Positions 10,279 through 38,382 of a stretch of 64,000 nt of DNA are shown one piece after another. Made by a program: the position numbers and the translations under genes. The notes below the pieces were generated by a model, which saw nothing but the letters and a program-made list of their open reading frames with translations, made no database searches and was not told the DNA's origin. Source of the DNA: Deltaproteobacteria bacterium HGW-Deltaproteobacteria-14 (GTDB lineage: Bacteria > Myxococcota_A > UBA9042 > PHBI01); contig PHBI01000047.1 of assembly GCA_002841945.1 (NCBI GenBank), forward strand, positions 5,421-69,420. The letters run 5' to 3'. The stretch's first letter is position 1; each line of letters opens with the position of its first letter.

Positions 10279-10401
10279 CCCGCGCGGCGGGTGACGTTTT
10301 GGTTGGGCGGCGTCGCGGGTGTGGCGGCGGGGCGTGCACGCGACGTTCGCTGGGAGTAGACTGGCTCACCAGCCGTACGGCATGTGCCCCGGAGCCGAAC
10401 G

Positions 10402-12017: not shown

Positions 12018-12100
12018 CGCACACCTCCCGCGGTCGTGACGTCGCAGTCTCCTGCGGTGGCCGCGGGTGCGCAAGCCTTCGCAGAGAGGTCGGGGGTGTG

Positions 12101-12116
12101 TGTGAACACTGTTCAT
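12101..12116. promoter_or_regulatory. Palindromic operator candidate TGTGAAC-ACT-GTTCAT in the WYL-recC divergent promoter region
   Basis: Same 6-3-6 architecture as 8401-8417. An adjacent GTTCAG half-site follows at 12120-12126. Confidence 0.45.
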
Positions 12117-21959: not shown

Positions 21960-22308
21960 ATGGCTGAGCTGGAGCTGCTGGACGGTGAGACCTGGGAGGC
22001 GTTCACTCGCGAGTGATCTGATCGTCCTGATGCTGGGCAAGACCGACTGCGCCGCGTGCGACGCGCGGACCCAGGAGCTGACCGAGCTGCTCGCGGCGGG
22101 CGGCGCGCGCTTCGCCGGGGTGCGCTTCGGCAAGATCCTGCTCGACCAGCGGGGGCTGGCGTCGTTCAAGCGGGCCTACGGGCCGCTCCTCGCGAGCGCG
22201 ACGGACCTGCCCTACAACATCATCTTCAAGGGCGGCGAGCCGCAGAAGGCCTGGTTCGGCGGCGGCGCGCAGCGCCTCGAGAACCGGCGGGCGCACTTCA
22301 CGGGCTGA
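21960..22308 (+). pseudogene. Thioredoxin-fold protein (CAAC active site) interrupted by an apparent 1-nt insertion that creates an in-frame TGA at 22014
   Basis: A strong RBS (GGTGGAGG) and ATG 21960 give MAELELLDGETWEAFTRE, then a stop. The thioredoxin-like body (DLIVLMLGKTDCAACDAR...IIFKGGEPQ) continues in the +1 frame with high GC3. Deleting t22014 joins the two parts seamlessly. Confidence 0.5.
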
Positions 22309-23350
22309 GGGGGGCGGCGCTCGCGGGGAGGGTGGACTTCACCCCCTCCCGGGTCACGAAGATGGCGTCGACGCCGGGGGTCGCCCGGGCAAACGCCAGG
22401 CCACGCTCCGGCCCCATCACGAACAGCGCGGTCGCGAGGGCGTCGGCCATGGCGGCGTCACGGGTCAGCACCGTGACCGAGCCGTCGAAGTCGGGCGGGC
22501 GACCGGTGCGCGGGTCCAAGATGTGTCCCACGCTCTGGTCGCCGACCGTCCGCCGCCGCAGGTAGTTCCCCGAGGTGGCGACGGCGGCGTCGCGCACCTC
22601 GAAGCGGGTCGCGGTGAGGCGCGGGAGCCAGGGATCGGCGACGCGCACGACCCGGGCCGAGCCGTCGGCCGCCGGTCCCGAGCCGCGGAGGTCACCGCCG
22701 AGGTTGACGACCAGGCTGGCGTAGCCGCGGCGCCGAAGCTCGAGGTAGACCGCGTCGATGATCCAGCCCTTGGCGACGCCTCCGAGCCCGAGGCGCACGT
22801 CGGGCCGCGCGAAGCGGACCCCGGCGGCGTCGACGACGACGTGGCGCCAGCCGACCTGGGCGAGCGTGGCGGCGAGGGCGTCGGCGCTGGGCGGGCGGTC
22901 GGCGTCGGCCGCGCGGTCCCAGAGCGCGCCCAGCGGCAGCCAGGTCGGGTCGAAGGCGCCGTCGGTCGCTCGGGCGACCTCGAGCGCGCCGGTCAGCAGG
23001 CGCCGCAGGGGATCGGACACGGCCACCGTCTCGACCCCGGCCCGCTGGTTGAGGCGGCTCAGCTCGCTGTCGTTTCTCCACTCGGAGAAGACCGCCTCGA
23101 GCCGCTGACACAGCGCGTGGGCCGCGGCGATGTCGGCGCGCGCGCGGGCCTCGTCGCCCGGGCGGGCGAGCACCTCGACGGTCCAGCTGGTGCCGAGCTC
23201 GTGCCCCTCGTCGACGACGGCGACCCAGCTCCCACCGGCGTCCGGGACCGCCGCTCGAGTGGGGGAGGGGGCCGCGGCCGCCGCCGGCGTCGCCCGAACC
23301 GCGAGCAGCGCCGCCCAGACCGCGAGCGCCGCGCTCCGCTGCGCGCTCAC
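22298..23350 (-). CDS. apbE: FAD:protein FMN transferase (ApbE family), secreted
   Basis: GTG 23350 overlaps the stop of the upstream gene. Signal peptide SAQRSAALAVWAALLAVRA. ApbE-like core (GGVAKGWIIDAV...ATSGNY...DPRTG...AMADALATA). Confidence 0.8.
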   Translation of the reverse strand: MSAQRSAALAVWAALLAVRATPAAAAAPSPTRAAVPDAGGSWVAVVDEGHELGTSWTVEVLARPGDEARARADIAAAHALCQRLEAVFSEWRNDSELSRLNQRAGVETVAVSDPLRRLLTGALEVARATDGAFDPTWLPLGALWDRAADADRPPSADALAATLAQVGWRHVVVDAAGVRFARPDVRLGLGGVAKGWIIDAVYLELRRRGYASLVVNLGGDLRGSGPAADGSARVVRVADPWLPRLTATRFEVRDAAVATSGNYLRRRTVGDQSVGHILDPRTGRPPDFDGSVTVLTRDAAMADALATALFVMGPERGLAFARATPGVDAIFVTREGVKSTLPASAAPLSP

Positions 23351-24477
23351 CACACCGCCGACGCGCCGAGATTCGCGCCGACGGCGCTGATCCCGTCCGA
23401 CCGGAAGAAGGCGAACAGCGAGAGCCGGCCGAGCCACGCCCGCGCCAGATCGCCCCGCAGCGGGAACACGAGCATCATCCCGGGGCTGTGCATGGTCCAG
23501 GCGTCGAGGTCGAAGTCCTGGGTCTGGTAGGTCGCGTCCGCGGTCGGCCGCTCGCGAAACCACTTCGCGCGCGACTGGGTGGCGAAGCGATACCAGAAGC
23601 GCCAGCGGCTGGTCGCGCCGAGCGGGATCTCGACGCTCGGCTCGACGGCGCCGGAGACCACCCCCCAGTCGTCGCCGTAGAGCGAGCCGTCGAGCCCGAA
23701 TCCGAGCCCATGGCGCGGCGACCACCGGACGCGGCCGCTCACCTGGACGCGGTCGCGCTCGCGCGGGAGCTGCTCGAAGCCCAGATGCACCGGGGTCCCG
23801 ACGTCGTCGTAGAGCACGACGAAGTTGTAGGCGTCCTGCATGTCTCCGTCCTGGCGGGTGTACTGGACGCTCGCGTTGACCAGCCAGGACGGTGACAGGT
23901 TCTGTGTGAACGACAGGATCAGGTTGTGCGACCGCAGGTAGTCGAACGGCATGATCAGGTCGTCCCAGCGGCGTGGCTTCAGGATCCCGAGCCGAAAGCT
24001 GTAGGTCAGCGCCAGGATCGTGTCGCTGTCGGCGAGATCGAGCTGCCCGGTGAGGTCCGCGCCGAGGGACACGAAGCGCCGCTGGTGGTGGTAGTACAAC
24101 CCCGCGGTGAAGCTCGCCGGGCTTTCCGGCGGCGTGAAGCGGAGCGCCGCCTGCGCGTCGAGGGTCAGCACCTGTGACGACGCCTGGGTCGTCAACACCT
24201 GGTCGACGGTGTCGGGCAGGGGGCGGGTGTTCTCGTTGTCGATGAGGCTGCCGGCGACGTTCAGCGCCATCGCGAGGCTGTCGTCGAACGCGTAGTCGAG
24301 GGCCATGCGCAGCCCACCGTAGCGGAGCCCCTCGGCGCGCAGCGGCTGCCCGCCGTCGTCGTCCTGGGCCAGGGCGAAGATGTCGAGGGTCGCCACGCTC
24401 GACGCCGCGAGCGCGCGTGGAACGAGCCCCGTGAGGGCGACCGCCGCGACCGCCAGCGCGACTACTCGCACCCGCAT
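23347..24477 (-). CDS. DUF3570-family predicted outer-membrane beta-barrel protein
   Basis: Signal peptide MRVRVVALAVAAVALTGLVPRALA. Alternating aromatic/hydrophobic beta-strand pattern. C-terminal aromatic residue (W). Confidence 0.65.
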   Translation of the reverse strand: MRVRVVALAVAAVALTGLVPRALAASSVATLDIFALAQDDDGGQPLRAEGLRYGGLRMALDYAFDDSLAMALNVAGSLIDNENTRPLPDTVDQVLTTQASSQVLTLDAQAALRFTPPESPASFTAGLYYHHQRRFVSLGADLTGQLDLADSDTILALTYSFRLGILKPRRWDDLIMPFDYLRSHNLILSFTQNLSPSWLVNASVQYTRQDGDMQDAYNFVVLYDDVGTPVHLGFEQLPRERDRVQVSGRVRWSPRHGLGFGLDGSLYGDDWGVVSGAVEPSVEIPLGATSRWRFWYRFATQSRAKWFRERPTADATYQTQDFDLDAWTMHSPGMMLVFPLRGDLARAWLGRLSLFAFFRSDGISAVGANLGASAVW

Positions 24478-24686
24478 CCCCCCGCGGCCGACCTCCCGTA
24501 GCCCCCGAAGCCTCCCTCTCGGGCGCCCTCGGCCTTGGCCCGCAGATACTCGACGGTCGCGTCGGGCGCGAAGCCCATGCAGTGGTCGGAGAGCCGGCCG
24601 CGCTCATGGGGGCGGGTCGTGCTGCACCCCGCGACGCCGCAGGTCGCGCTGGCGAGGACGAGGACGAGGACGACGAGGGCGCGCAT
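24462..24686 (-). CDS. DUF4266-family small lipoprotein
   Basis: MRALVVLVLVLASATCGVAGCSTT (lipobox), ~74 aa, C-terminal GGCGCE. Overlaps the DUF3570 gene start by 16 bp. Confidence 0.6.
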   Translation of the reverse strand: MRALVVLVLVLASATCGVAGCSTTRPHERGRLSDHCMGFAPDATVEYLRAKAEGAREGGFGGYGRSAAGGCGCE

Positions 24687-24712
24687 GGGCCGGATCATGC
24701 CCGCCACCGTGG

Positions 24713-25243
24713 CTAGCAGCAAGCACGAGATGAGCGTGACAGCGTGTCCCAGGCCGCCAGGAACGTGAGCTCTGCCTCGAGCGCCGACCACGGCGCGATC
24801 ACCTCGCTGAGCGGCGCGACGGCGATCCCCCAGGTGGAGGCGTCGGTCCCCATCAGGTCGCGCGCCTCGGTCGCGAGCAGCACCGTGTCCGCGTGCTTCA
24901 CCGCGTCGGGCATCGGCCACGCCAGCCCGAAGCGCGCCGCGACGACGCGCATGAAGCGCTCCTCGACGACCTCGTAGTCCGGGAGCCGCCGCTTGAGGGG
25001 CCGCGGGACGTCGGCGAGGTACGCCTCGCTGGCGTCGTGCATCAGCCCCCATAGCGCGTGCTCCGCGGCGCCCGCGCGCGCTACGCGCACCGAGTGCTCC
25101 GCCACCGAGTAGAACGCCCGGCAGTGCCCGTTGAAGCGGCACAGCTGGCTCAGCGCGTGGGCGACGTCCTCGATCACCAGCGCCTCGGGATCGGGGTCGA
25201 GGGGGTCGATTCGCCGGCCGGTGTAGGTCTGGATCCAGCCCAT
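24713..25243 (-). CDS. HD-domain hydrolase (YfbR-like 5'-deoxynucleotidase family)
   Basis: MGWIQTYTGRRIDPL...VAEHSVRVA...GLMHDASEAYLADVP is an HD motif. The upstream extension of ORF 24713..25684 has poor GC3 and overlaps the neighbouring gene. Confidence 0.6.
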   Translation of the reverse strand: MGWIQTYTGRRIDPLDPDPEALVIEDVAHALSQLCRFNGHCRAFYSVAEHSVRVARAGAAEHALWGLMHDASEAYLADVPRPLKRRLPDYEVVEERFMRVVAARFGLAWPMPDAVKHADTVLLATEARDLMGTDASTWGIAVAPLSEVIAPWSALEAELTFLAAWDTLSRSSRACC

Positions 25244-25251
25244 CCTGTCGC

Positions 25252-26388
25252 TCACGGTGTCAGGGTCACGCCCGCCGGGAGGGGCCAGGTGTTGTGTGAC
25301 ACGCGGTCCGTTCCGCAGTGGGTCCCATCCCCGAGGGCCGTGGTCAGCACCAGGCGGCCACGGTCTGGCGCCATCACGACCTGCAGCACGCTCGGAGCGC
25401 TGAAGTCGGCGCACATCCCGTCGTCGCGGTCCTCCTTGCTGCACTTGGCGGTGACGAACGGGACCCGACCGAGCTCGAAGGACGCCTTGTTGTCCGGGGC
25501 GACGAGCCTGAAGGAGGCCACGCCCTTGGCGCCGACGGCGTCGATGAACCAGCCCTCGAGCGGCGCAGCGAGCATCACCGTCGGGGTGTGCGCGCGGATG
25601 CCCGAGGGTTGCTCCGCCGTCGCCGTGATCAGGTCCGCCGCGGGCGCGAACCCGTCGCGGCCGATCTTTGCGACCCACGCCCAAGCCTGGCGCGCCGTCG
25701 GCTCCGCGGCGGCGTCGGGATCGACGAGCACCTTGCCGGCCCCCGCGGCCAGGTCCGTCAGCGAGGCCACGCGCCCCTCGAGCCGGTCCGCGTCGCTGCA
25801 GCTGCCGATCTCGGCGGTCGTCACCAGGGCCACCTGGTCGCCCTTGAAGCCGACCACGCCGAGCAGGCCGATGAACCCGCAGCCGTCCGCGTCGGGGTGG
25901 GTGCCGCAGCGCCCGACCCGGGTGAGAATGCCGCGCTCGCTCTGGTCTACGGGCGCCAGCGCGCTCAGCAGATCCGCCGAGAGCACCCCGGCAGCGGGCA
26001 CCTCGACCCCGTACTCGTTGGTCGTGCGGCCGCCAGCCGCGCTGCCCGTGTCAGCCTCCCCAGCCGGGGCGGCCGCGGCGTCGGTCTCCCCCTCTGGAGC
26101 GGTCGCCACGTCGGCCTCGCCCTCGGGTGCGGTCACCGTATCGGCCACGCCCTCCGGTGCGGTCGGCGTGTCCGCCTCGCCCGCCGGCGCCGCCGCGTCC
26201 GCCGCCGCAGGCCCCTGTGCGAGCGCAACATCAGCGGTCGTGCTTGGGCCTGGTTCAGATTTTATTACAGATGGTTGCGTCGTTGATGGTGGCGGTTGCG
26301 ATGCATCATCCATGGTCGCCTTCTTGCCACCGCACGCCACGATCCCGAGCCCCGCGACGACCGCCATCCACCCGAGCACGCTCCGCAT
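25252..26388 (-). CDS. Hypothetical lipoprotein with TAPEGEAD 24-bp tandem repeats
   Basis: ATG 26388 gives MRSVLGWMAVVAGLGIVACGG (lipobox). Followed by a Pro/Ala/Glu-rich repeat region, then a Cys-containing globular domain. Confidence 0.55.
   Translation of the reverse strand: MRSVLGWMAVVAGLGIVACGGKKATMDDASQPPPSTTQPSVIKSEPGPSTTADVALAQGPAAADAAAPAGEADTPTAPEGVADTVTAPEGEADVATAPEGETDAAAAPAGEADTGSAAGGRTTNEYGVEVPAAGVLSADLLSALAPVDQSERGILTRVGRCGTHPDADGCGFIGLLGVVGFKGDQVALVTTAEIGSCSDADRLEGRVASLTDLAAGAGKVLVDPDAAAEPTARQAWAWVAKIGRDGFAPAADLITATAEQPSGIRAHTPTVMLAAPLEGWFIDAVGAKGVASFRLVAPDNKASFELGRVPFVTAKCSKEDRDDGMCADFSAPSVLQVVMAPDRGRLVLTTALGDGTHCGTDRVSHNTWPLPAGVTLTP
26030..26210 (-). repeat. Imperfect 24-bp tandem repeats encoding T(A/V)PEGEAD within the lipoprotein gene
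   Basis: Peptide repeats TAPEGVADTVTAPEGEADVATAPEGETD and the corresponding DNA periodicity. Confidence 0.5.
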
Positions 26389-26615
26389 ACGGCCTCCCGC
26401 GCCTGGCGCTCGCGTCTCGCGAGCCGCGCTGCGCGAGAGCCTACACCCGCTGTTCGCGCCCGCAAGGCCCTCGTGGGGTCCGGTCGGGCAACTGAACATC
26501 CGTAGGGCGCCTTCCCGCGGCGCGGACGTCGCTATGATGCCTCCATCCCGCGTCCACGTCCCCCGCCCCTCCTCGCCCCCCCGGCGCTCGCGGGGCGCTC
26601 ACCTCGGAGGCCCCG

Positions 26616-27422
26616 ATGAAGCACGACACCCGATGGTCCCGCGCGCACCGGCCCGCTCGGCACCTGCCCCTGTCGTCCGATCTCGCCGGCGCGACCTGCG
26701 CCGCGCTGGTGCCGGTCGCCAGCGACCCGGGCGTGGGCGAGGAGGTCGTGGTCGCCCTGCTCGCCGTCACCGAGGAGGAGGCGCGCCATCTGGCCGCGAC
26801 CGAGCCTTTCCGTGTCGGCGTGGTCGCCGGGCTGATCCCGACCGGGCACGGGCCGGTGCTCGGCGTGCTCTGGACGGTCGCGGATCCGGCGGGTGGCTGG
26901 GAGCCGTTGGTCGTGCACCAGTCGCTCCTCGACCCGGCCGACGCCACCGCCCTGGCCCCGTTCCGCCGCCTCGCCGCCCAGTCGTGCTGGCACCTCGCCG
27001 TCCTTGGCCCCGATCACGTCGTCCACCGCTGGGCCGCGCTCGACAACCACTTCGGCCTCGGCGAGTCCCTCGAGGCCTGCGTCGAGCTGGGGCGCGCCCT
27101 CGGGCCCACCGACATCGCCGCCGCGGCGCGCGCGATCGAGCGTCGCTGGACGCCCCTCGACGTCCTCGCGGCGCACGATCCACCGCCCGTCGCCGCCGGC
27201 CGCTTCCTGGTCGACGACCTCGTCGCGCTGCTCGCCCACGCCCTGACGCAGCGCGACCGCACCGCCGCCCGCGCCGTCGGCGCCGTCGCCAGCGCGCGGG
27301 GCGGCATGGCGGCGATGGAGCTCGTGCTCGCGACCTACCGGGCGCGCCTCGGTGGCGCTCGCGGGGCGGACCCGGATCGCCTGTCCCGCTGGTGGCGCGG
27401 GGTCGGTGGCTGGCGCGAGTGA
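26616..27422 (+). CDS. Hypothetical protein (268 aa)
   Basis: Long ORF with high GC3. No recognisable domain. Lies upstream of the vWA operon. Confidence 0.4.
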   Translation: MKHDTRWSRAHRPARHLPLSSDLAGATCAALVPVASDPGVGEEVVVALLAVTEEEARHLAATEPFRVGVVAGLIPTGHGPVLGVLWTVADPAGGWEPLVVHQSLLDPADATALAPFRRLAAQSCWHLAVLGPDHVVHRWAALDNHFGLGESLEACVELGRALGPTDIAAAARAIERRWTPLDVLAAHDPPPVAAGRFLVDDLVALLAHALTQRDRTAARAVGAVASARGGMAAMELVLATYRARLGGARGADPDRLSRWWRGVGGWRE

Positions 27423-27574
27423 TCACCGCGCGCCGTGTCCCGTGCGACACGCGGGCGTCCCACGAGGAACACGAGCCGCGCCGGCGCGCGCGAATATTGC
27501 GTTGAAATTAATGGAGTTTCTTGTGTGGCACGGGCCTTGCTTTGGAGGCCTCCGTACCCAACACGGAGGTCTCC

Positions 27575-28768
27575 ATGCTTTCCACCGCAGCGGTCGCCGA
27601 GCCCAGCGCTCCGCGGCCGACTCGTGAACGACGGGGCGCGCGACCCGCCGTGACCCGCCTGACCGTCGCGCTCCTCACCCTCGGCGTCGCGCTCTCGGTC
27701 CCGGCCGTCGCCAGCGCGCGCCCGACGGGCGTGCCCCGCATCGAGGTCGCGTTCGTGCTCGACGCGACCGGCTCGATGAGCCCCTGGATCGAGCAGGCGC
27801 GCCGCCGCATCACCGCCATCGCGACCGACCTCGCCACCGGCGAGCCCGCCCCGGAGGTCCGCTTCGGCCTCGTGGCGTACCGCGACACCTCGGACGACTT
27901 CGTGACCCGCGTCGATGACCTCACGCCGAACCTCGACAGCATCAAGGCCCAGCTCGACGCGACCCACGCGCAGGGGGGCGGCGACTACCCGGAGGCGGTG
28001 CTCGAGGCCCTCGAGGCTGGCGTCGTCCAGCTCCGCTGGACCCTCGACGACCCAGACGTCATCAAGCTCATCTACCTCGTCGGCGACGCGCCGCCCAACC
28101 ACCACCCCGACACCCCCGACGAGGACCGCGTCCTCGCCGAGGCGCTCGACCGCGGCATCGTCATCCACACCATCGCCTGCGGGAACATCAGCGACGGTGG
28201 CGAGGGCTTCTTCGAGCGCGTCGCCCGCATGAGCGAGGGCCGCCCGTTCCGCCTGCGGGACGCCGGCCCGCCCGAGGCGCGCTCCCCCGAGGCCGTCGCC
28301 GTGACCGCCGTCGGCGCCACCCGCACCACCAGCCTCGCCGCCGCAGTCAGCGGCTCTGCGCGCGCCTACTCCGGCAGCGTCGGCGTCGCCTACGCCGCCA
28401 AGCCTCGCCCGACGGTGGCCACCGCGCCCCTCGCCGTCCCGCCCGCCGCCGCGGCCGGCGCGAGCGGCCTCCTCGGCCCCCACGTGCGGGTCGTCCGCGA
28501 CGCCCGGGCCTGGTCCGATCTCTGGCTCGCCTTCACCAGCACCCGCGCCGGTGAGCCCCCCGCCGTCCCCGAGGTCGACTTCGAGCGCACCTGGGTGCTC
28601 GCCATCGGCGGCGGCGACGCCGGCCTCGAGCTCGCCCGGGTCGAGCAGGACGAGGGCGTCCGCTTCGCCGTCGTCCGCCCGACCGCCACGCCGGGCGTGC
28701 GCTTTCTCACCGTCCCCGCGGGCGACCCCATCGTCGCCGCCGCCGACTCCACCGGAGGTGCCAAGTGA
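27575..28768 (+). CDS. Secreted von Willebrand factor A (vWA) domain protein
   Basis: Signal peptide (possibly Tat: RERRGARPAVTRLTVALLTLGVALSVPAVASA). MIDAS motif VAFVLDATGSMS...GGDYPEA...YLVGDAPP. Confidence 0.7.
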   Translation: MLSTAAVAEPSAPRPTRERRGARPAVTRLTVALLTLGVALSVPAVASARPTGVPRIEVAFVLDATGSMSPWIEQARRRITAIATDLATGEPAPEVRFGLVAYRDTSDDFVTRVDDLTPNLDSIKAQLDATHAQGGGDYPEAVLEALEAGVVQLRWTLDDPDVIKLIYLVGDAPPNHHPDTPDEDRVLAEALDRGIVIHTIACGNISDGGEGFFERVARMSEGRPFRLRDAGPPEARSPEAVAVTAVGATRTTSLAAAVSGSARAYSGSVGVAYAAKPRPTVATAPLAVPPAAAAGASGLLGPHVRVVRDARAWSDLWLAFTSTRAGEPPAVPEVDFERTWVLAIGGGDAGLELARVEQDEGVRFAVVRPTATPGVRFLTVPAGDPIVAAADSTGGAK

Positions 28769-31074
28769 CTTCACGCCTGCTCCGCGGCGCGCTCGCCGCC
28801 GCGCTCTGCCTCGTCGCCACCCCGGCCCTGTCGGCCGGCTGGGCCACGGCGCCCGTCGGCCCGCTGCGCACCGCCTACACCCGGGTCGACGCCGTCATCG
28901 ACGGCGACACGGCGCGCACCACCGTCACCCAGGTCTTCGTCAACGACCTCGAGACCCCGGTCGAGGTGACCTACCGCTTCCCGCTGCCCGAGGACGCCAG
29001 CGTCACCGGCTTCGCCGACTGGCGCGACGGCCGCCGCCTCGAGGCGACCGTCGCCGGCAAGGAGGACGCCCGCGACGCCTACGAGGAGGCCGCCGCCGAG
29101 GGTCGCCCCGCCGCGCTGGCCGAGAAGGAGGCCAACGCCCGCTTCGTGATGCGGCTGTCGACGGTGCCCCCCCGGGGCGCCCGCCGGGTCGAGCTCACCT
29201 ACGTCCAGACGCTCTCGGCCCTCGGGGGCGAGCGCACCTGGGTCTTCCCGGCCGAGCGCGCCGGCGACGTCCCGCCGCCGACCGTCCTCGACGTCGACGT
29301 CACCCTCCGCAACGAGTCGCCGATCAAGGCCGTGCAGTCCCTCAACCACGGCGACGCCCGCGTCATCCCGCAGCGGGACGGCTCACGCCACGTGGCGCTG
29401 AGTCGCACCGGCGGCGGCCTCGGCTACGATCTCGTGCTGCGCTGGCGCGTCGAGACCGAGGCCATCGACCTGGCCGCCCGCGCCGTCCGCCCCGACGCCG
29501 ACCAGCCCGGCTACGTCGAGGCGCGCCTCAGCTTCGCGAGCGACCCCTACGACGCCCTGCGCCCGCCCCAGGACGTCGTCATCGTCCTCGACCGCTCGCT
29601 CTCGATGGCCGGCGCGCCCCTCGAGCGCGGCCGCGCCCTGGTCGAGGGGATCCTGGCCGAGCTCGCCCCCGAGGACCGCTTCTCCCTCATCACCTTCAAC
29701 GCCGGCGTGACCCCCATCGTCGGCGACCTCGCGCCGGCCGACGACGCCAACATCGACCTCGCCCAGGCCGGCCTCGACGACGTCCGCGCCGCCGGACGCT
29801 CCGATCTCCAGGCCGCCCTCGACGTCGCCGCCCACGTCCTGCGCGCGAGCAGCGCCGGGACGCTGGTCCTCGTGACCGACGGTCAGCCGACCGCCGGCGC
29901 CGGCTACACCCGCCTGCCGCTCGCCGCGGACCTCGCCGACTGGGTCGACCACCGCGTGGTCGTCGCCCACGCCAGCTACCCGTCGCGTCAGCCGGTCCTC
30001 GAGCAGCTCTTCCCCCAGGTCACCGTGCGCTACGTCCCCGACGGTGACGCCGGCGTCGACGCCATCGAGTCCCTCATCCGCCTCGTCGTCGCCCCGACCA
30101 TCGAGGACCTCTCGGTCGACCTCGACGGCGCCAACGTCTTCGCCCTCGAGGGCAAGGTCCCGGCGCGCCTCGCCGTCGGCGAGTACCTCCGTCTCCTCGC
30201 CCGCGCCGAGTCCGACGTCGTCGTGCGCGTCAGCGGCACGCTCCACGGCCGCCCGGTCCGCCTCGAGCGCGAGGTCGTGCTCCCCGCTGGCCCCGACGCG
30301 CGCGGCGACCGCGGCCTGCCGGTCGAGTGGGCGCGCCTGCGCGTGGCCGGCCTCGAGGCGCGCTTCGACGGCGCGGCCTACGACGAGCAGGAGGCCATCG
30401 AGGCGGAGATCCGGTCGCTCGGCGCCGCCTACCGCCTCGCCACGCGCTTCACGAGCTACGTCCTCACCGACTCCCTCGCCCCCGACCGCATCATGCCTGG
30501 CGACCCCGAGATCCGCGTCCACGCGCCCGCAACGGCGCTCGGCGTCCGCGCCGTCCTGCCGTGGGGCGAGGTCGTCGACTGTCACTGGCAGCAGGACGAG
30601 CAGCTCTGGCTCGGCCGCTTCCTCGTCCCCCGCGGCACTCCGGACGGGATGTACCGGATGCGGGTCTTCGTCGACGGGCAGGAGGGGACCGAGCTCCGCG
30701 GCACGCTCTTCTTCCGCGTCGACTCCGAGCCGCCGGAGTTCGAGCTGCTGATCGAGGGCGACGCGACCGTCGCCATGGCCGACACCCTGCGCGTCATCGC
30801 CCGCCCCAAGGACGGCGTGTACGAGGGCGAGGCGCTGCGGACGGTCGGCGACACCGTCGTCCGCGACAAGGTCGACCTCAAGCGCATCGTCGTGCAGCTC
30901 GGCGACCGCGAGTACCCGCTGACCCAGGTCGGCGACGGCGAGCTGTGGGCCGCCGACGTCCCCGTCGCCGTCGCGGCCGGGCGGCACGTCCTCAAGCTCG
31001 TGGCCGTGGACTACGCGCTCAACAGCACCGAGGCCACCCTCGCCATCGACGTCCACGCGGAGCGCACGCCGTGA
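28765..31074 (+). CDS. Secreted VIT (vault/inter-alpha-trypsin) + vWA domain protein
   Basis: ATGA overlap with the preceding gene. Signal peptide MTSRLLRGALAAALCLVATPALSA. VIT-like N-terminus (VEVTYRFPLPEDASVTGF). vWA motif VVIVLDRSLSMAG...LVTDGQPT. Confidence 0.75.
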   Translation: MTSRLLRGALAAALCLVATPALSAGWATAPVGPLRTAYTRVDAVIDGDTARTTVTQVFVNDLETPVEVTYRFPLPEDASVTGFADWRDGRRLEATVAGKEDARDAYEEAAAEGRPAALAEKEANARFVMRLSTVPPRGARRVELTYVQTLSALGGERTWVFPAERAGDVPPPTVLDVDVTLRNESPIKAVQSLNHGDARVIPQRDGSRHVALSRTGGGLGYDLVLRWRVETEAIDLAARAVRPDADQPGYVEARLSFASDPYDALRPPQDVVIVLDRSLSMAGAPLERGRALVEGILAELAPEDRFSLITFNAGVTPIVGDLAPADDANIDLAQAGLDDVRAAGRSDLQAALDVAAHVLRASSAGTLVLVTDGQPTAGAGYTRLPLAADLADWVDHRVVVAHASYPSRQPVLEQLFPQVTVRYVPDGDAGVDAIESLIRLVVAPTIEDLSVDLDGANVFALEGKVPARLAVGEYLRLLARAESDVVVRVSGTLHGRPVRLEREVVLPAGPDARGDRGLPVEWARLRVAGLEARFDGAAYDEQEAIEAEIRSLGAAYRLATRFTSYVLTDSLAPDRIMPGDPEIRVHAPATALGVRAVLPWGEVVDCHWQQDEQLWLGRFLVPRGTPDGMYRMRVFVDGQEGTELRGTLFFRVDSEPPEFELLIEGDATVAMADTLRVIARPKDGVYEGEALRTVGDTVVRDKVDLKRIVVQLGDREYPLTQVGDGELWAADVPVAVAAGRHVLKLVAVDYALNSTEATLAIDVHAERTP

Positions 31075-32738
31075 TCACCTGGCTCGCCGCCCTGCTGCTG
31101 ACCGCCGCCGTGGGCCCGCCCCCGGCGGCGACCCCGACCGCGCCTGGCGCCTGCCCGGTCCCCGAGGGGCCGGTCAGGGCGCGGACCGTCCTCGCCGACG
31201 GGACCGCGGTGGTCGCCCGCGACGGCGCCCTGCAGCTCGCGGACCGGCTCGTCACCGCCTGCGACGGGCTGCCCGATCCCTTCCCCATCAGCGTCGCCGC
31301 CTTCGAGGGCGAGCTGTGGGTGGGTTTCAGGGCGGCGGGCCTCTACCGCTTCGACGGGCACAGCTTCAGCCGCGCCGAGGGCCTCCCGGCGGACGCGGTC
31401 CGCGCGCTCGCCGCCGGGCCGGACGCCCTCTGGATCGGCACCGGCAAGAGCGGCCTGTGGCGCCTCAGCCGCGACGGCGCGCTCGCTCGCTTCGACCACC
31501 GCGTCCTCGGCCAGCAGGAGGTCTCGGCGCTGCTCCTCGACCGCAAGGGGGACCTCCAGGTCGGCGCCGGCATGTACGGCTGGTGGCGTGTGCGCCGCAA
31601 CAAGGCCACGCGCATCCAACGCAATATCTATGTCGGCTGCTTTGCTGCGATGCACGGCAAGGCGGTGCCGCTCTCCCCGGGCCCCGAGTGCGACCTCGGC
31701 GCCGCGACCTCGGCGTCCGGGCTGCCCTCGAGCCACGTCGCCGCGCTGACCTGGCACCGCGGGCGGCTCTACGTCGGGACCTTCGACCGCGGGCTGGCGG
31801 TGCAGGGCGCTGACGGGCGCTTCGCGGGCGTCGCCGGCGCGCCGCCCTTCGTCAACGCGCTGGTGTCCGACGGCGACACCCTGTGGATCGGGACCGCCAA
31901 GGGGCTCTGGCGGGCTCGCGGAGACGCCGCACCTCAGGCGACGCCCCTCGGGCTGCCCTCGGAGCACATCACCGGGCTCGCCGTCGCCCCCGACGGGACG
32001 CTGTGGCTCGCGACCGGACAGGGGCTCGCCGCGCGGGAGCCGGGCGGGCGGGTGCGCGTCCTCGGCGTGGCGGCCGGCCTGCCGTCGCGGCTCGTCTACG
32101 CCGTGGCGGTCGCCGAGGATGGCGCGGTCTGGGCCGGCACGGCCGGCGGCGCCGCCCGCTTCGGCTCCGAAGGCGTCCGGGTCTACACCCAGGTGAGCGG
32201 CGCCCTGACCCACGACTGGGTCAACGCGCTGCTGCCCGACGGCGACGACGGCGGCGTCCTCGCCGGCACCTACGACGCAGGCGTGGTGCGCCTGACCCCC
32301 GACGGGCACGGGGTGCCCCTCGCCGGGCTCGAGCACCTGTGGGTGAACCCCGGTGGGCTCACGCGGATCGGCTCCGGCGCGCTCGCGGTCGCGACCCTCG
32401 GAGACGGCCTCGCGATCGTGAACGCCGACGGCGGGAGGCTCGTCCGGGGCCTCCCGTCGGACGACGTGACGAGCGTGGTCCCGGCGGCGGAGGGGCTGTG
32501 GGTCGGCACCCGCGGCGGCCTGGTGCGGATCGGTTTCGCCACCGCCGGGCCCGCTTCGCGTCGGCCGGGGGGACCCTTTGGGGTGCGAAACGGTGTCGTA
32601 TCGGGCGCGGACCTGCGTCCGCCGCGGCCGACCGGCGGGGCCGCGGCGTGTCCCGACCGGTCGCGAGCTCCGGACTCCGGTCCGCGGCCTGCCGTTTCAG
32701 ACGCGACGCGACCTTGTGATAGCGTCGCTCCGCCATGA
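31071..32738 (+). CDS. Secreted two-component-regulator propeller (Reg_prop/Y_Y_Y-like) repeat protein with no kinase domain
   Basis: GTG 31071 overlaps the upstream stop (GTGA). Signal peptide. Repeated LWIGTxxGLxR / LWVGTxGGLVR blades. The last ~35 aa are encoded by the dispersed repeat. Confidence 0.65.
   Translation: MITWLAALLLTAAVGPPPAATPTAPGACPVPEGPVRARTVLADGTAVVARDGALQLADRLVTACDGLPDPFPISVAAFEGELWVGFRAAGLYRFDGHSFSRAEGLPADAVRALAAGPDALWIGTGKSGLWRLSRDGALARFDHRVLGQQEVSALLLDRKGDLQVGAGMYGWWRVRRNKATRIQRNIYVGCFAAMHGKAVPLSPGPECDLGAATSASGLPSSHVAALTWHRGRLYVGTFDRGLAVQGADGRFAGVAGAPPFVNALVSDGDTLWIGTAKGLWRARGDAAPQATPLGLPSEHITGLAVAPDGTLWLATGQGLAAREPGGRVRVLGVAAGLPSRLVYAVAVAEDGAVWAGTAGGAARFGSEGVRVYTQVSGALTHDWVNALLPDGDDGGVLAGTYDAGVVRLTPDGHGVPLAGLEHLWVNPGGLTRIGSGALAVATLGDGLAIVNADGGRLVRGLPSDDVTSVVPAAEGLWVGTRGGLVRIGFATAGPASRRPGGPFGVRNGVVSGADLRPPRPTGGAAACPDRSRAPDSGPRPAVSDATRPCDSVAPP
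32592..32695 (+). repeat. Copy B of the ~100-bp dispersed repeat at the 3' end of the propeller gene
   Basis: gtatcgggcgcggacctgcgtccgccgcggccg...ccggactccggtccgcggcctgcc, compared with copy A. Confidence 0.7.
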
Positions 32739-32968
32739 CGTATCAAGACGACCTCCGCGAGAAGCTGGCCGGCGACATCGACGTGACGACCTGGAGGGAG
32801 CTGCGCCCGCACGCCGCGCGTGGCGGCCAAGGTCGGCCTGTGGGCCGGGAGCGGGGCCCTCACCCGGCCCACCGCCGCGCAGCTCATCGCCTGGGAGCGC
32901 GCCCTCGACAAGCCCTTCGACTGCGTCGTGCTGTCGCCCTACGTCGTCGCGGCCGAGCGCCCGGAGTA
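32735..32968 (+). pseudogene. Small conserved-looking protein (~78 aa) with an apparent 1-nt frameshift near 32815
   Basis: ATG 32735 gives MTYQDDLREKLAGDIDVTTWRELRPHAA with high GC3. GC3 then collapses in this frame and continues in the +1 frame (VAAKVGLWAGSGALTRPTAAQLIAWERALDKPFDCVVLSPYVVAAERPE, stop 32968). Confidence 0.35.
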
Positions 32969-33004
32969 GCCATCCGGCCGGTGTCCTGATCCGAAGACGT
33001 ACGC

Positions 33005-33613
33005 CTAGAGCTCCCGCTGAATCCGCACCACCGCCCGCACCTGCCGCTCGAAGCCGGGGCACGCCCGCTGCCCGTTGACGTGCGGGCAGCCGGCGCAGCG
33101 GTCGACGGCGCCCACCCCGACCCGGCGCCGGGCGATGACCGCCGCGACCCACAGCGCCGGCCACGCCACGAGCCCCGGCCAGCCGACGAGCGCCGGCGCC
33201 GCCAGGGTCACGCCGGCGCAGACGCCGAGCCCCGCGCGCGAGAGATCGCGCCCGAGCCGCGATCTCACGCGGCCGTTGTGCAATGCGGAAAGAACGATCG
33301 CGCCCGCCGCGGCAACCGACGCCACGACAGCGCCACCCAACAAGGTGAGGGTGGCGGCTGTCGCTATCGCGATCGCGAAGGACACGGCCGTCCCTGCGGC
33401 CGCCGCGGCGCAGCTGCGGCACACGAAGACGTGGCCGAAGCGCAGCGTCTCCGCCCCGTAGCGATCGCACAGCGGCGCGTGCGCCCAGGCGTAGGGGTAG
33501 AAGTGGCGCGCCCACACCAGAAGCCGCCGCGCCGGCAGCCGCCAGCGCCGCGGGAGCAGGCGCACCAGCCCCCAGCGCGGCCGCGGGGCCGCTCGCTCGC
33601 CGGTCGGCGTCAC
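33005..33613 (-). CDS. Hypothetical integral membrane protein with Cys clusters (CxxC...CAGCPH)
   Basis: 202 aa with several hydrophobic segments. The start abuts the upstream YbjQ gene. Confidence 0.4.
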   Translation of the reverse strand: MTPTGERAAPRPRWGLVRLLPRRWRLPARRLLVWARHFYPYAWAHAPLCDRYGAETLRFGHVFVCRSCAAAAAGTAVSFAIAIATAATLTLLGGAVVASVAAAGAIVLSALHNGRVRSRLGRDLSRAGLGVCAGVTLAAPALVGWPGLVAWPALWVAAVIARRRVGVGAVDRCAGCPHVNGQRACPGFERQVRAVVRIQREL

Positions 33614-33620
33614 CCTCGGC

Positions 33621-33986
33621 TCAGGCCGCGGGCTCGACCACCACCGCGGTGCCGTATGCGACGATCTCGGCCATCCCCTGGGCGACCGTCGAGGTCCCGA
33701 AGCGCACCTCGACCACGGCGTTCGCCCCGATGGCGGCGGCCTTCTCCGACAGCCGGTCGACCGCCTGCTGGCGCGCCTCCTGGAGGAGCTCGGTGTAGCC
33801 CGAGACCTCGCCGCCGGTGATGTTCTTGCAGCCGGCGAGGAAGTCCTGGCCGATGTTCTTCGCGCGGACGGTGAGGCCCCACACGAGGCCCTTGTAGCCG
33901 ACCACCCGCTGCCCGGGGATGGTGCTCGTCGTCGCTACCATGATCCTGTCGCTCACGCCGCTGCCTCCTGTGTCGTCAGACGTCAT
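33621..33986 (-). CDS. YbjQ/UPF0145 family (putative heavy-metal-binding) protein
   Basis: IMVATTSTIPGQRVVGYKGLVWGLTVRAKNIGQDFLAGCKNITGGEVSGYTELLQEARQQAVDRL matches YbjQ-type proteins. Confidence 0.7.
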   Translation of the reverse strand: MTSDDTGGSGVSDRIMVATTSTIPGQRVVGYKGLVWGLTVRAKNIGQDFLAGCKNITGGEVSGYTELLQEARQQAVDRLSEKAAAIGANAVVEVRFGTSTVAQGMAEIVAYGTAVVVEPAA

Positions 33987-34287: not shown

Positions 34288-37200
34288 TCACTTGCCGCGC
34301 GCGCCCTGGTCCTCGTCCTCGTCCGCGTCGGCTCCGCCGCGGCCCTCGCGCGCGCCCCGGATCAGCGCCGCCAGCTCCTCGACCGTCAGCGCGCGCGCCG
34401 CGTCCGTGCCCGCCAGAAGCGCCTCGGCGAGCTCCCGCTTCTCGTCGTGGAGCGCCATGATGCCCTCCTCGACCGTCCCCCGCGCCACCAGGCGGTACAC
34501 CGTCACCGGCTTGTCCTGCCCGATGCGGTGCGCCCGATCGGTCGCCTGGTCCTCGACCGCCGGGTTCCACCACGGATCGAGGTGGACGACGTAGTCCGCC
34601 GCGGTCAGGTTCAGCCCGGTGCCGCCGGCCTTGAGCGACAGCAGGAAGACGTCGCCGTCCCCCGCCTGGAAGGCGTCGACCTCGACGCGGCGCTGCGCCG
34701 CCGGCGTCTGACCGTCGAGATAACGCCAGCGCACCCCGGCCGCGTCGAGCGCCTGCCGCACCAGCGCGAGGAGCGTCGTGAACTGACTGAAGATCAGCGC
34801 CCGGTGACCCTCGTCCCGCAGCTCCGCGACGAGCTCGAGCAACACCGAGAGCTTGCTCGACTTCACCGCGGATGAAGCGTCGACGAGCCGCGGGTGACAC
34901 GCCAGCTGACGCAGCCGCGTGAGCGCCTGTAGCACCATGAAGCGCTGCTGCGGCGCCGCCTTGTCCTCGCCGCGGCCGATCCCCGCCAGGCTGTCCGCCG
35001 CCGCCGTCCGGAGCTCCTCGTAGAGCGCCCGCTCGGCGGCGGAGAGATCGACGTCCACACGCACGTCGGTGCGCGGGGGCAGCTCCTTGGCGACATCCCG
35101 CTTGAGCCGGCGCAGCACGAACGGCCGCACCAGCGCCGCCAGCGCTTCCCGCGCGTCCGCCCGCCCGAGCCGCTCGATCGGCACCGCGAACGACTCGCGG
35201 AACCCCCTCTTGCCGCCGAGCAGCCCCGGCGCGATGGCGCGGAACAGGCTCCATATCTCGCCGGTCCGGTTCTCGATCGGCGTCCCCGTGAGCGCCACGA
35301 CGAACCCGGCGTCGAGCCCGAAGACCGCCCGCGCCCGGAGCGTCTCCGGGTTCTTGATCGCCTGCGCCTCGTCGAGCACCACCGTCGTCCAGCGCCGCTC
35401 CTTGAGCGCCGTCGCGTAGCGCGCCACGAGGTCGTAGCTCGTCACGACGACGTCCCCGGCGCCGAGCTCCCCCTCGAGCAGGCCGACGTGCTGTGCGCCG
35501 CGAAAGAGGGACACCCGCAGCTCCGGCGCGAAGCGCTCGGCCTCGCGCTCCCAGTTGAAACCAAGCGACGTGGGCGCGACGACCAGCTGCGGCCCGTCCA
35601 TTCTGCGATGCAGCATGAGCGCCAGCGCCTGCACCGTCTTACCGAGCCCCATGTCGTCCGCGAGGCACGCCCCGGTCGACCAATGCGCCAGCCGCACCAG
35701 CCACTGAAACCCCTCGTGCTGGTAGTCGCGCAGCTCACCTCGGAGCCCGGCGGGCAGCGGCGCGGCGAGCCCCGATGCCTCTCGCAGCCGCGTCATGCGC
35801 TCGTACCACGCCGTGCTCCCCGAGACGTCAGCCCCCGCCTCCGCCAGCTCGGCCACCAGCGGCGCGGCGAGCGCCGTCAGCCGATCGTGGCTCGCGGTCG
35901 CCGCCAGGGCCTCGAGCTGTCGCCGCAGCTGGGCGTCCAGCGCCGCGAAGCTCCCGTTGTCGAGGCGCACGTAGCGTCGCCGCTCGCGCAGGGCGCGCAG
36001 GATCTCCCGCAGCGGGATGGTCCCGCCGTCCTCGCCCGTCGCCTCGCCCTCGAGGGTGAACCAGTCGCGGCCCCCACCTCCCTCGGCTCGGACCACCAGA
36101 TCCGAGCCGCGCACGGCCCGCCCGACGTGGTAGCGCTCGGTGCCGCCCCACTCGACCGGGATGTGCGCGTCGCGGGCGTTGTTCAGCACGTCGAGCACGT
36201 CGTCGACCGCGTCGAGCCCCCACTCGTGGCGCAGGCCATCGTCGTGTACCGGGAGCCCCAGCGCCGCGGCCGCCGCGCTCGCCGCCGCGAGCTCCGCCGG
36301 GAAGTCGCGCCTACAGTGAACGACCGCGTCGCCGCGTCGCGCCAGCAGCTTCTCGGGGCCCATCCCCGGGCTCTCCGACGCCCGCTCGACGAGCGGGCGG
36401 ACCACGAGCCGCGCGCTCACCGCGCCGTCCGCCGGCGCCTCGAGCTGCAGGATCGGCGCCGACGTCCCGTCGACCTCGTCGCCGGTTAGCGCCTCGGGGA
36501 CGTGCACCGGGACGTGGGCGCTGGCCTCGGTCAGGTAGCCGACCAGCTCAGGCAGCGCCTCCGCGGGCAGGTGGTCGCCGAGCGCCGTCCACGTCGTGAC
36601 CAGCGCCTCGGCCTCCGGCGGCACGGTGATCACGCGCAGGATCCCGCCCTCCTCGTCCGCCTCCACGGCGACCCCGAGGCGGGCGCGCCGCACCAGGTCC
36701 CGGGCCTCGTCGAGGGTCAGGAGCGCGCCGTCGAGCTCGAAGCCGAGCCGGACCCCGTCGCCGTCCTCGCGCACCGCCTGCACCAGCTCACTGCGACGCA
36801 CATTAACGGGCCGTGCCATGTTCGGATCGAGCATGACTCGTGGGTGGTGGACGAGATGCTGCACCGCACGATACGGCGCCCCGAGATCCTGGGCCGCGAG
36901 CTCCGCGAGGATGGCGGCGTCCGCCGGGTGGCGCCAGCGGCGCGGCTCCCGGGTCAGGCCGCTGATGGCGAGCTTGCGCACGACGAGCCCGCTGCCGGTC
37001 TTCTTGGGGCGCAAGAACACCGGCACGATCTCGAGCTCGTAGCGGGTGAGGCGGACGCGCCAGCCGAGCTCGCCCTCCTCGTTGCCGTGGACCAGCGGCG
37101 CCGGGGCCGCCTGGACGAGGTGCCGGCGCATCTGATCGAGGGCCCGGCGCCACGGCGGCGTCGCCAGCTCGGCCGCGAGCTGCGCGGCCTGCTCGGCCCA

Positions 37201-38196: not shown

Positions 38197-38382
38197 CGCA
38201 CCTCCCCCGGCGCAGGTGGTAGCAGATGGGTCGTCGATTGTCATGATGTGCCCGGCCGTCGGGCGCCGTCGGTGGGCTCGCGGGCGCGCCGGCGCCGGCG
38301 GAGCGCGGAGCTCGCGGGCTATTGTTTCGGTCCGGCGACTATGGGAGGGTCCCACGACCAGCATTCACCGGGAGCGAGGGGC

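Follow-up and report, generated by a model that had tools for sequence, protein, structure and literature searches.

The 64,000-nucleotide stretch of contig PHBI01000047.1 analyzed here (the window), from the myxococcotal genome HGW-Deltaproteobacteria-14, carries a cassette of three plus-strand genes, which we call g2, g3 and g4. In order, they encode an exported von Willebrand factor A (vWA) protein with a PrcB_C-like C-terminal domain, an exported VIT-vWA protein resembling the heavy chains of inter-alpha-trypsin inhibitor (ITI heavy chains, ITIH), and an exported stand-alone Reg_prop beta-propeller. We infer that the cassette specifies an extracytoplasmic binding complex based on vWA domains and their metal-ion-dependent adhesion sites (MIDAS), of undescribed make-up and akin to known vWA adhesion modules. 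Each part belongs to a family already known. The novelty lies in their combination, which joins a bacterial ITIH homologue to a Reg_prop partner of its own, adds a lineage-specific third subunit and has a conserved sigma-54 promoter.

A conserved, translationally coupled gene cassette

Because the G+C content of the window is ~74%, raw lists of its open reading frames (ORFs) are full of spurious frames. A frame plot of G+C at third codon positions (GC3) places four plus-strand genes in the interval under study, exactly where an earlier note made from the letters of the window had put them, and public records hold identical proteins for all four (CVU56_11650, CVU56_11655, CVU56_11660 and CVU56_11665). 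The first, g1, is treated with the surroundings below; the others are g2 (27575-28768, 397 aa, CVU56_11655; GC3 frame and Pfam), g3 (28765-31074, 769 aa, PKN57293.1, CVU56_11660; Pfam) and g4 (31071-32738, 555 aa, CVU56_11665; Pfam). The likely start of g2 is the ATG at 27575, which has GGAGG just 5' of it, yields 397 aa and matches the public gene call; an alternative upstream TTG at 27521 is offered by the ORF listing. Both the g2/g3 and the g3/g4 junctions are 4-bp GTGA overlaps, and the start codons of g3 and g4 are GTG. The 4-bp overlaps had been noted earlier and are confirmed at both junctions, with the correction that the one at 28765 had been read as ATGA. Also upheld in Pfam were the earlier domain assignments, namely vWA in g2, VIT plus vWA in g3 and Reg_prop in g4.

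The two most conserved peptides of g3 were used to scan a single genome of each GTDB species, which returned 25 related loci. All lie in metagenome-assembled genomes (MAGs), from Kofleriaceae, Polyangiaceae, Nannocystaceae, Bradymonadia and unclassified Myxococcota; since retrieval relied on two peptide patterns only, absence from cultured species is suggestive. Named homologues come from Myxococcota or "Deltaproteobacteria" MAGs, bar a few of the most distant matches. By tblastn, g2, g3 and g4 are adjacent, in the same order and on the same strand, in 23/23 loci with a g3 of 36-89% identity (in a few, a contig end truncates the locus); the triplet is kept as a unit under the neighborhood check that the earlier note had proposed.

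The 4-bp start/stop overlap recurs between g2 and g3 in 20/23 other loci and between g3 and g4 in 16/24; at the remaining junctions the spacing is -1 to +6 nt. For g3 in 20/23 loci, and for g4 in 18/23, the 3' end of the preceding gene contains a Shine-Dalgarno core. Overlaps with embedded Shine-Dalgarno cores are a sequence signature of translational coupling and equimolar synthesis. As gene order, overlaps, embedded sites and the promoter described below recur in independent genomes, their pattern is more than would be expected by chance. The comparison shows g2, g3 and g4 to make up what is predicted to be one sigma-54-dependent, translationally coupled operon, and supports the earlier view of a coupled unit of exported proteins.

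All-against-all clustering of ORFs from the 25 loci gave no further conserved neighbor, none being common to more than six loci. Shared flanking genes reflect sub-clade synteny only (an acyl-CoA dehydrogenase-like gene in six loci, an ABC transporter in five), and the four annotated neighborhoods present wholly different housekeeping contexts (e.g. Suf, DapAB, glyoxalase). Since the flanks are unrelated between loci, the cassette is autonomous. No MoxR/AAA_3, DUF58, Bat, kinase, phosphatase, sortase or exosortase gene was found in the window or within +/-10 kb of the 25 loci, in line with the earlier claim that MoxR, TerY-type kinase/phosphatase and Bat partners are lacking.

A predicted sigma-54 promoter

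The 152-nt gap between g1 and g2 contains a predicted sigma-54 (-24/-12) promoter, TGGCACgggccTTGCT (27526-27541, plus strand), 34 nt upstream of the g2 ATG. The element follows the pattern TGGCAC-N5-TTGCT and is the sole exact match to TGGCAC-N5-TTGC within the window; in TGGCACGGGCCTTGCT (27526-27541) the -24 GG and the -12 GC stand at the exact spacing, upstream of the first gene. A GG-N10-GC element is kept upstream of g2 in 21/23 orthologous loci (best 16-mer within 380 nt), and the promoter score reaches at least 12 (of 13.5) in 17/23, as compared to 0.03 expected per 380-nt window from a background estimated over all loci and both strands. Perfect copies also lie upstream of the two-gene cassettes of loci L026 and L028. 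No sigma-70-like promoter was found in 26300-33700, and the only terminator-like match in the region (27520-27534) coincides with the sigma-54 promoter and is probably a scan artefact.

Conservation of this promoter implies an unlinked AAA+ enhancer-binding protein, and the operon would need RpoN together with such a protein for its transcription. The statement in the earlier note that no ATPase partner is present is true of the neighborhood and is qualified by this implied, unlinked activator. Neither a GAFTGA-containing enhancer-binding protein nor rpoN is encoded within the window, and a linked enhancer-binding protein occurs near the cassette in only 1/29 loci (L013). The L013 gene lies directly downstream of the cassette (~14665, minus strand), and its product represents a candidate cognate activator family.

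g3, a homologue of inter-alpha-trypsin-inhibitor heavy chains

In Pfam, g3 matches VIT (E 7.5e-28, 97 bits) and VWA_2, VWA and VWA_3, with a weak Big_13 match at the C terminus. A profile of the g3 family retrieved ITIH4 (E 5.1e-48), ITIH1 (E 2.3e-34) and PARP4 (E 4.6e-32) from the PDB sequences, over residues 31-577. The AlphaFold2 (AF2) model, built on a 17-sequence alignment, has a predicted local distance difference test (pLDDT) score of 81, and its best Foldseek match in the PDB is human ITI heavy chain 1 (HC1; 6FPY, E 1.2e-31, 595 columns). The elements of the model run VIT sandwich, hybrid half, vWA, hybrid half, helices and return strand, an order that matches the one published for HC1 (PMC7170535; PMC10539598); g3 has the N-terminal VIT followed by a vWA inserted in a hybrid domain that defines the VIT-vWA superfamily. 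By homology and predicted fold, g3 is a true ITIH homologue, and the earlier description of a 769-aa VIT plus vWA protein of ITIH architecture is confirmed by Pfam, the PDB profile search and Foldseek alike. The MIDAS of g3 is canonical, with D276, S278, S280 and D372 invariant and T371 present in at least 90% of the 17 sequences, and is a predicted metal site.

Beyond the ITIH-like core, residues ~582-764 (30508-31056, plus strand) form tandem Ig-like beta-sandwich domains in the AF2 model (strands 582-664 and 668-764) that are absent from ITIH; a family signature, W-L-G-R-F-L-V-P-R, falls within this region. The ITIH alignment ends at ~577, and g3 contains neither a Pfam match to the ITI_HC_C propeptide nor a DPHFII site. 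Where the core meets the first Ig-like domain lies a P-G-D-P-E motif (residues 578-582; 30496-30510, plus strand), which is invariant in the 17-sequence alignment. The GDPE within it was considered as an ITIH-type cleavage site and is retained as an improbable reading only, the alignment showing no positional equivalence. Low-confidence, exposed linkers are modeled at 375-383 and 570-579.

g4, a stand-alone Reg_prop propeller

The Pfam match of g4 to Reg_prop (E 5e-23) scores 78.7 bits vs a cut-off of 20.4. Against PDB sequences, a g4 profile retrieved BT4663 4A2L (E 2.8e-41), 3V9F (E 7.7e-33), 3OTT (E 1.1e-24) and PorZ 5M11 (E 2e-5). About 10 tandem Reg_prop-type repeats occupy residues 73-489 (31287-32537, plus strand) and are conserved in 24 orthologues; a self-derived repeat hidden Markov model finds a period of ~40 aa and resolves nine strong repeats plus one or two weak ones. 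Cys28 and Cys64, which follow the leader, are invariant, and a second pair is conserved, with Cys207 present in at least 90% and its partner, in GCF, read from the alignment. The C-terminal tail (residues ~490-555; 32538-32735, plus strand) is of low complexity and not conserved; g4 orthologues end at ~residue 490, and the GC3 signal decays after ~32450.

No Y_Y_Y, HisKA, HATPase or transmembrane (TM) segment was found in g4, which departs in this from the periplasmic domains of hybrid two-component system (HTCS) sensors. Of the earlier label "Reg_prop/Y_Y_Y propeller", the Reg_prop half stands, with its ~10 repeats, and the Y_Y_Y half does not. The propeller does stand alone in having no kinase, as had been claimed, and for this a kinase-less Reg_prop-type precedent exists in PorZ (PMC8545088). 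More distant g4 homologues carry HisKA_3/HATPase or GGDEF domains.

The g3-g4 pair as core of the probable complex

Three lineages carry g3 and g4 without g2 (L026, L028 and the P0255 contig); L026 holds the pair only, its g3 being 28% identical. Distant g4 homologues (33-35% identity) sit directly downstream of an 836-839-aa VIT-vWA gene, with a 4-bp overlap, no g2-like gene and a PBP-family gene as the 5' neighbor of the VIT-vWA gene. A TPR gene takes the place of g2 before the pair in L030, and in L031 the order is swapped, the propeller gene coming first and the VIT-vWA gene second. L019 and L020, both from Polyangiaceae MAGs, have g3 and g4 fused in frame as single ORFs of 1207 and 1212 aa, the fusion in L019 spanning 6844-10467. 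The fused polypeptides run VIT, vWA, Ig, Ig, linker, mature g4 N terminus (with its Cys...Cys motif) and propeller, and the g4 signal peptide is gone, as expected of a genuine fusion.

An adjacency that outlasts a change of order, a change of partner and fusion argues strongly for g3 and g4 working as a single physical entity. The VIT-vWA protein and the propeller very probably form an obligate stoichiometric complex. The pair is very probably the ancestral core, to which the main Myxococcota clade appears to have added g2 as a third subunit. The "ternary module" of the earlier note is accurate as a conserved triplet, and its conserved core is the VIT-vWA and propeller pair.

The PGDPE motif follows the same pairing. 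Together with the WLGRFLVPR Ig-like module, it is found in 60/75 retrieved g3 homologues (P0001-P0058, P0062 and P0065) as well as in the L028 VIT-vWA, and every PGDPE-bearing VIT-vWA whose neighborhood was examined has a propeller partner. It is absent from 15 more distant VIT-vWA proteins, and the one of these that was examined (P0064) has no propeller partner. Distant VIT-vWA proteins (26% identity) also occur in L029 (7001-11292) as two tandem paralogues with FlgD_ig C termini, without propeller and without PGDPE; this pair adjoins a 1175-aa S8 peptidase and an extracytoplasmic function (ECF) sigma factor.

g2, a vWA protein with a PrcB_C-like domain

Orthologues of g2 are found in the same position in 23/23 loci. 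Its AF2 model (pLDDT 79) runs from a Sec leader through a vWA domain and a disordered linker to a compact alpha/beta domain. The vWA domain (residues 55-227; 27737-28255, plus strand) was delimited by Pfam (VWA_4 7e-13, VWA 1.5e-6), alignment invariants and AF2 secondary structure, and its top Foldseek matches are integrin beta-I and other vWA domains (E 6e-10). It carries a MIDAS-type motif, D63-A-T65-G-S67 (D-A-T-G-S-M), that is invariant in 22 orthologues. The "intact MIDAS" described earlier holds as regards this invariance, with the reservation that D63-x-T65-x-S67 has Thr in place of the first Ser.

The C-terminal alpha/beta domain (residues ~297-390; 28463-28744, plus strand) gave no direct match in Pfam (E up to 10; g2 plus 16 orthologues) or in PDB sequences. 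A profile of the domain retrieved 367 proteins among 1.8 billion representatives. In a sample of 20 of these, 11 match PrcB_C (PF14343), nine of them above the curated cut-off, and four others share the vWA architecture of g2. For the three single-domain proteins checked, the Pfam PrcB_C match falls within the profile-matched stretch. This indicates a divergent PrcB_C-like domain, a kinship at the level of the superfamily only that is traced through intermediate sequences.

Predicted export of the three proteins

Signal peptides were called heuristically from sequence and orthologue alignments. The g2 signal peptide covers residues 1-48 (...AVASA|RP; 27575-27718, plus strand), and all 21 full-length g2 orthologues have a short hydrophobic leader ending in AxA. 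Sec-type leaders are present in all orthologues of g2, g3 and g4, which bears out the earlier claim of a separate signal peptide on each protein and shows the three products to be predicted Sec substrates. Tat export of g2, which had been raised as a possibility, was rejected; the RR in its leader is not conserved, and the orthologues have ordinary Sec leaders.

No lipobox was found in any window protein. Cys28 of g4 was considered as a lipobox cysteine and rejected, the preceding residues being variable and unlike a lipobox; Cys28 and Cys64 are instead read as a disulfide pair. The conserved Cys pairs of g4, combined with its Sec leader, argue for an oxidizing, extracytoplasmic location. The g3 proteins of L018-L020 have lipoboxes (LASC, VSAC and TSGC), so in that clade the complex is predicted to be membrane-tethered. 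No TM segment, Y_Y_Y or output domain was found in g2, g3 or g4.

Genomic surroundings

The gene upstream of the cassette, g1 (26616-27422, plus strand, 268 aa; PKN57291.1, CVU56_11650), has a strong coding GC3 signal. It has no signal peptide and no family match in Pfam, NCBIfam or PADLOC, forms a singleton cluster at 90% clustering, and was found by tblastn nowhere except in the window's own contigs, being absent from all orthologous loci. The 268-aa ORF earlier described as domain-less does lack a Pfam family; it is unrelated to the unit, is not conserved with g2-g4, and was rejected as a fourth cassette member. Downstream, the start of a DUF2288 gene (32735-33040) overlaps the g4 stop by ATGA. 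Compared with the otherwise identical Logan contig L002, the window misses 68 bp between 32822 and 32823; this loss frameshifts the window copy of DUF2288 (an 84-aa ORF, not 100 aa) and explains an odd switch of the frame plot there. The DUF2288 gene, frameshifted in the window and not conserved in other loci, was likewise rejected as a cassette member. A search of g1-g4 against PADLOC and an Rfam search gave no match, and hence no defense-system model and no RNA element.

On the minus strand, a divergent five-gene run (22298-26499), at least some of whose genes encode envelope proteins, comprises an ApbE flavin transferase, DUF3570, DUF4266 and two family-less proteins (176 aa; 378-415 aa); in other genomes this run does not accompany the cassette. 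Farther away are a recC-recB-recD operon (12215-21083; Exonuc_V_gamma/RecC_C, a UvrD-type helicase of 1280 aa and a RecD-like protein of 596 aa) followed by an AhpC/TSA gene (21373-21897), and a group of small regulators (9460-12116) with a Crp/cNMP-binding protein (9460-10278), an HD_4 phosphohydrolase (10384-11046) and a minus-strand WYL-WCX transcription factor (11022-12116) that abuts recC. A very large ORF at 3445-8016 (1523 aa, GC3 0.95) has a weak PPC (pre-peptidase C-terminal) match and is otherwise unannotated. At 34288-38364, the minus strand encodes a 1358-aa SNF2-family helicase with a weak bacterial SNF2_assoc region; the plus-strand ORF listed over it (36502-40146) is real only from ~38400 on, where it encodes an amidohydrolase. 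In other genomes, carbohydrate genes lie just downstream of the pair in L028 (8594-14916: GT2, Wzy_C) and L030 (8077-12383: GH1, GH76/CBM6/CBM35), a weak hint of a glycan connection.

Comparison with known systems

The closest relatives of g3 are ITIH1-4 and the wider VIT-vWA family (VWA5A, PARP4, Dictyostelium Vwa1). Homology to ITIH extends over ~550 residues and takes in the VIT beta-sandwich, the hybrid domain with its inserted vWA, the helical bundle and the return strand; the MIDAS is intact, and g3 is, like ITIH, predicted to be exported. A beta-propeller protein likewise acts together with Dictyostelium Vwa1, namely FbxwD, which is of the WD40 F-box kind (PMC10539598). Unlike ITIH, to which its identity is ~18%, g3 is without the ITI_HC_C propeptide and the DPHFII site and has two extra Ig-like domains, the invariant PGDPE and a Reg_prop partner in the same operon; equivalents of bikunin and TSG-6 are absent from the bacterial cassette.

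The integrin alpha-beta headpiece offers a second comparison, in that a propeller (g4), a hybrid-inserted vWA (g3) and a free vWA (g2) are extracytoplasmic parts with MIDAS motifs. The best Foldseek matches of g2 are beta-I domains, and HC1 has been described as beta-integrin-like (PMC7170535). However, the cassette propeller is of the Reg_prop and not the FG-GAP type, and the parts are separate soluble or lipid-anchored proteins without TM tails. The parts list may be said to parallel an alpha-I integrin headpiece as an architecture-level analogy only.

Propellers like that of g4 are known from Bacteroides HTCS sensors (BT4663, E 2.8e-41) and from PorZ of the type IX secretion attachment complex (E 2e-5); PorZ functions with no kinase, binding glycan as one subunit of a protein complex at the cell surface (PMC8545088). 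In contrast to their two 7-bladed propellers, g4 has ~10 repeats in ~460 residues and conserved disulfide cysteines, is without Y_Y_Y or a C-terminal domain (CTD), TM segment or kinase, and has a VIT-vWA protein rather than a sortase as partner. The sorted VIT-vWA proteins (TIGR03788, the marine proteobacterial sortase target family, and TIGR04477, XrtN-sorted) share the exported VIT plus vWA architecture with g3, whose scores nevertheless fall far short of their cut-offs (154 bits vs 552 for TIGR03788, 12.8 vs 250 for TIGR04477). The g3 C terminus (...AIDVHAERTP) lacks LPXTG and PEP-CTERM signals, no sortase or exosortase is a neighbor, and the partner is a propeller.

The C-terminal domain of g2 appears to fall in the same PrcB_C superfamily as PrcB of Treponema denticola dentilisin (PrcB-PrcA-PrtP). 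The prcB gene, too, comes first in a three-gene operon, one that encodes an envelope protein complex (PMC8167434). However, g2 has an N-terminal vWA and is not a lipoprotein, and the cassette encodes no PrtP-like protease or PrcA. The MoxR-vWA, BatA-E and TerY-type systems are likewise bacterial vWA/MIDAS proteins, whereas the cassette is without an AAA+ MoxR, DUF58, kinase or phosphatase and does not show their operon organization. Finally, CglB and CglD are integrin-like vWA adhesins of the Myxococcus envelope (PMC9946355; bioRxiv 10.1101/2023.10.19.562135). They differ in being single lipoproteins tied to the Glt gliding machine, with no VIT or Reg_prop partner, and were not retrieved as homologues.

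Full-text literature searches for the domain combination found no description of it, and no family library names the unit, in agreement with the earlier statement that the triplet is not a named system. NCBI names the proteins "hypothetical" or "VWA domain-containing", and the JGI name, "Ca-activated chloride channel family protein", is a generic vWA label.

Possible functions of the complex

Our preferred but tentative reading, drawn by analogy, is that of an envelope or matrix complex in which the propeller would supply glycan recognition and two MIDAS sites would capture acidic ligands. Purely by homology, g3 and g4 (with g2) would form a MIDAS-dependent binding module of the cell envelope or extracellular matrix. 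The g4 propeller may recognize a glycan, as its relatives in Bacteroides hybrid sensors and PorZ do, and the MIDAS sites, like those of integrins and ITI heavy chains, may hold acidic ligands carried by proteins or polymers. As a tether or cross-linker, the complex would then act on envelope or matrix material or on the surfaces of prey or substrates, and a specific condition would turn on the operon through an unlinked enhancer-binding protein. In HC1, the vWA and hybrid domains are arranged in a beta-integrin-like way and the MIDAS is functional, serving cation-dependent interactions with proteins; HC1 also stabilizes a hyaluronan matrix (PMC7170535). The propellers of BT4663 bind disaccharides on their entry faces (PMC5121618), and kinase-less PorZ binds the anionic polysaccharide of A-LPS (anionic lipopolysaccharide) and presents it to PorU on the cell surface (PMC8545088).

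Several points weigh against this envelope or matrix complex. All cassette carriers are uncultured MAGs, and no ligand, glycan-synthesis gene or further matrix gene is consistently linked, glycosyl-transferase or hydrolase neighbors being found in L028 and L030 only. Protein-protein contacts are a further function of Reg_prop propellers, which leaves glycan binding uncertain. Additionally, proteases are suggested just as much by the ITIH4 precedent and by the PrcB_C link of g2. Of the two roles suggested earlier, adhesion or complex assembly fits better and is strengthened by the g3-g4 fusions, and signaling is unsupported because there is no output domain, no TM segment and no linked regulator.

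Control of a protease, the main rival, is an unlikely role. Here g3 would act as an ITIH4-like bait that, after cleavage, holds the protease through its vWA MIDAS; the PrcB_C-like domain of g2 would bind or stabilize a subtilisin-type protease as PrcB does PrtP; the propeller would be a scaffold; and, of the many proteases that myxobacteria secrete, one would be inhibited, stored or positioned by the complex. The best PDB sequence match of g3 is indeed ITIH4 (E 5.1e-48), an inhibitor of proteases whose action is triggered by cleavage and depends on the MIDAS (PMC7793589). The C-terminal domain of g2 appears to belong to the superfamily of PrcB, which binds, stabilizes and is required for the subtilisin PrtP (PMC8167434). 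There are exposed low-confidence linkers in g3 (375-383 and 570-579), and an S8 peptidase stands beside the distant VIT-vWA pair in L029. However, neither the window nor any of the 25 loci has a linked protease gene, several lineages do without g2, PrcB_C is small, widespread and of obscure biochemical role, and the Reg_prop propeller is left without a role. Quite unlikely, in our estimation, is an extracytoplasmic co-sensor, a propeller-vWA complex that, on binding a ligand from the environment, would pass a signal to an unlinked membrane kinase or anti-sigma factor controlling distant genes. Reg_prop propellers are best known as sensors of hybrid kinases and GGDEF proteins, and distant g4 homologues have such domains; FecR domains are fused to distant VIT-vWA relatives (P0071 and P0075), and the operon itself appears to be under enhancer-dependent control. 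Yet the three proteins have no TM segment, Y_Y_Y or output domain, no kinase, anti-sigma factor or regulator is conserved nearby (an enhancer-binding protein in 1/29 loci, L013), and the fusion partner of the propeller is a vWA protein, not a transducer.

Covalent coupling of the kind seen in inter-alpha-inhibitor is very unlikely. In such a scheme, cleavage of g3 at Gly-Asp/Pro (D580-P581) would free an Asp carboxyl, which would form an ester with a polysaccharide that the propeller presents, in parallel with the Asp-chondroitin ester of ITI heavy chains and with the passing of A-LPS from PorZ to PorU. PGDPE is invariant, occurs in every examined propeller-partnered VIT-vWA and lies in a low-confidence linker after the ITIH-like core, the ITIH1 alignment stopping two residues before it. 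ITI heavy chains are joined to chondroitin sulfate through an ester at their C termini (PMC7170535), other bacterial VIT-vWA families are, by their NCBIfam names, covalently anchored substrates of sortase or exosortase, and PorZ offers a precedent (PMC8545088). On the other hand, the ITIH cleavage site lies ~40-60 residues further along ITIH1 and is not position-equivalent to PGDPE, which may instead be the first Ig-like strand or a propeller-binding surface. The two Ig domains downstream, both well conserved, would be released on cleavage, as would the entire propeller in L019 and L020, and no transferase is encoded. Harder still to credit is a full prokaryotic counterpart of inter-alpha-inhibitor, in which the propeller captures a specific polysaccharide of the envelope or matrix, g3 is autocleaved at Gly-Asp/Pro and esterified to it, and the resulting cross-links build a multicellular-type myxobacterial matrix. 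Least probable of all is that the cassette is an incomplete or degenerate form of a known vWA system (MoxR-vWA, Bat aerotolerance, TerY-kinase-phosphatase or a sorted VIT-vWA adhesin) with its partners elsewhere. Proteins with vWA domains do usually come with MoxR, Bat, TerY-type or sortase-type partners, and g3 has a sub-threshold match to the marine sortase target family (154 bits). Against this, that match is far below the TIGR03788 cut-off of 552 and no C-terminal sorting signal is present, the window and the +/-10 kb around the 25 loci are devoid of AAA_3/MoxR, DUF58, kinase, phosphatase, sortase and exosortase genes, there are no PADLOC matches, and the cassette proteins are predicted to be exported whereas MoxR and TerY systems are cytoplasmic.

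Implications

The VIT-vWA proteins, among them the ITI heavy chains, VWA5A and PARP4, are medically important and mechanistically obscure. A bacterial homologue with a genetically defined and sometimes fused propeller offers a simple two-protein system for questions of VIT, hybrid and vWA binding, and the cassette adds a second kinase-less role for Reg_prop propellers, after PorZ. It appears as a compact, sigma-54-controlled envelope module across several largely uncultured families of Myxococcota, a phylum of matrix-dependent multicellular behavior. Should the ligand prove to be a protease, the complex would represent a new class of bacterial protease regulator; were covalent glycan coupling true, the origin of heavy-chain-glycan chemistry would be pushed back to bacteria. 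If the ligand is instead a matrix polysaccharide, its likeness to the heavy-chain-hyaluronan matrices would be interesting in evolutionary terms.

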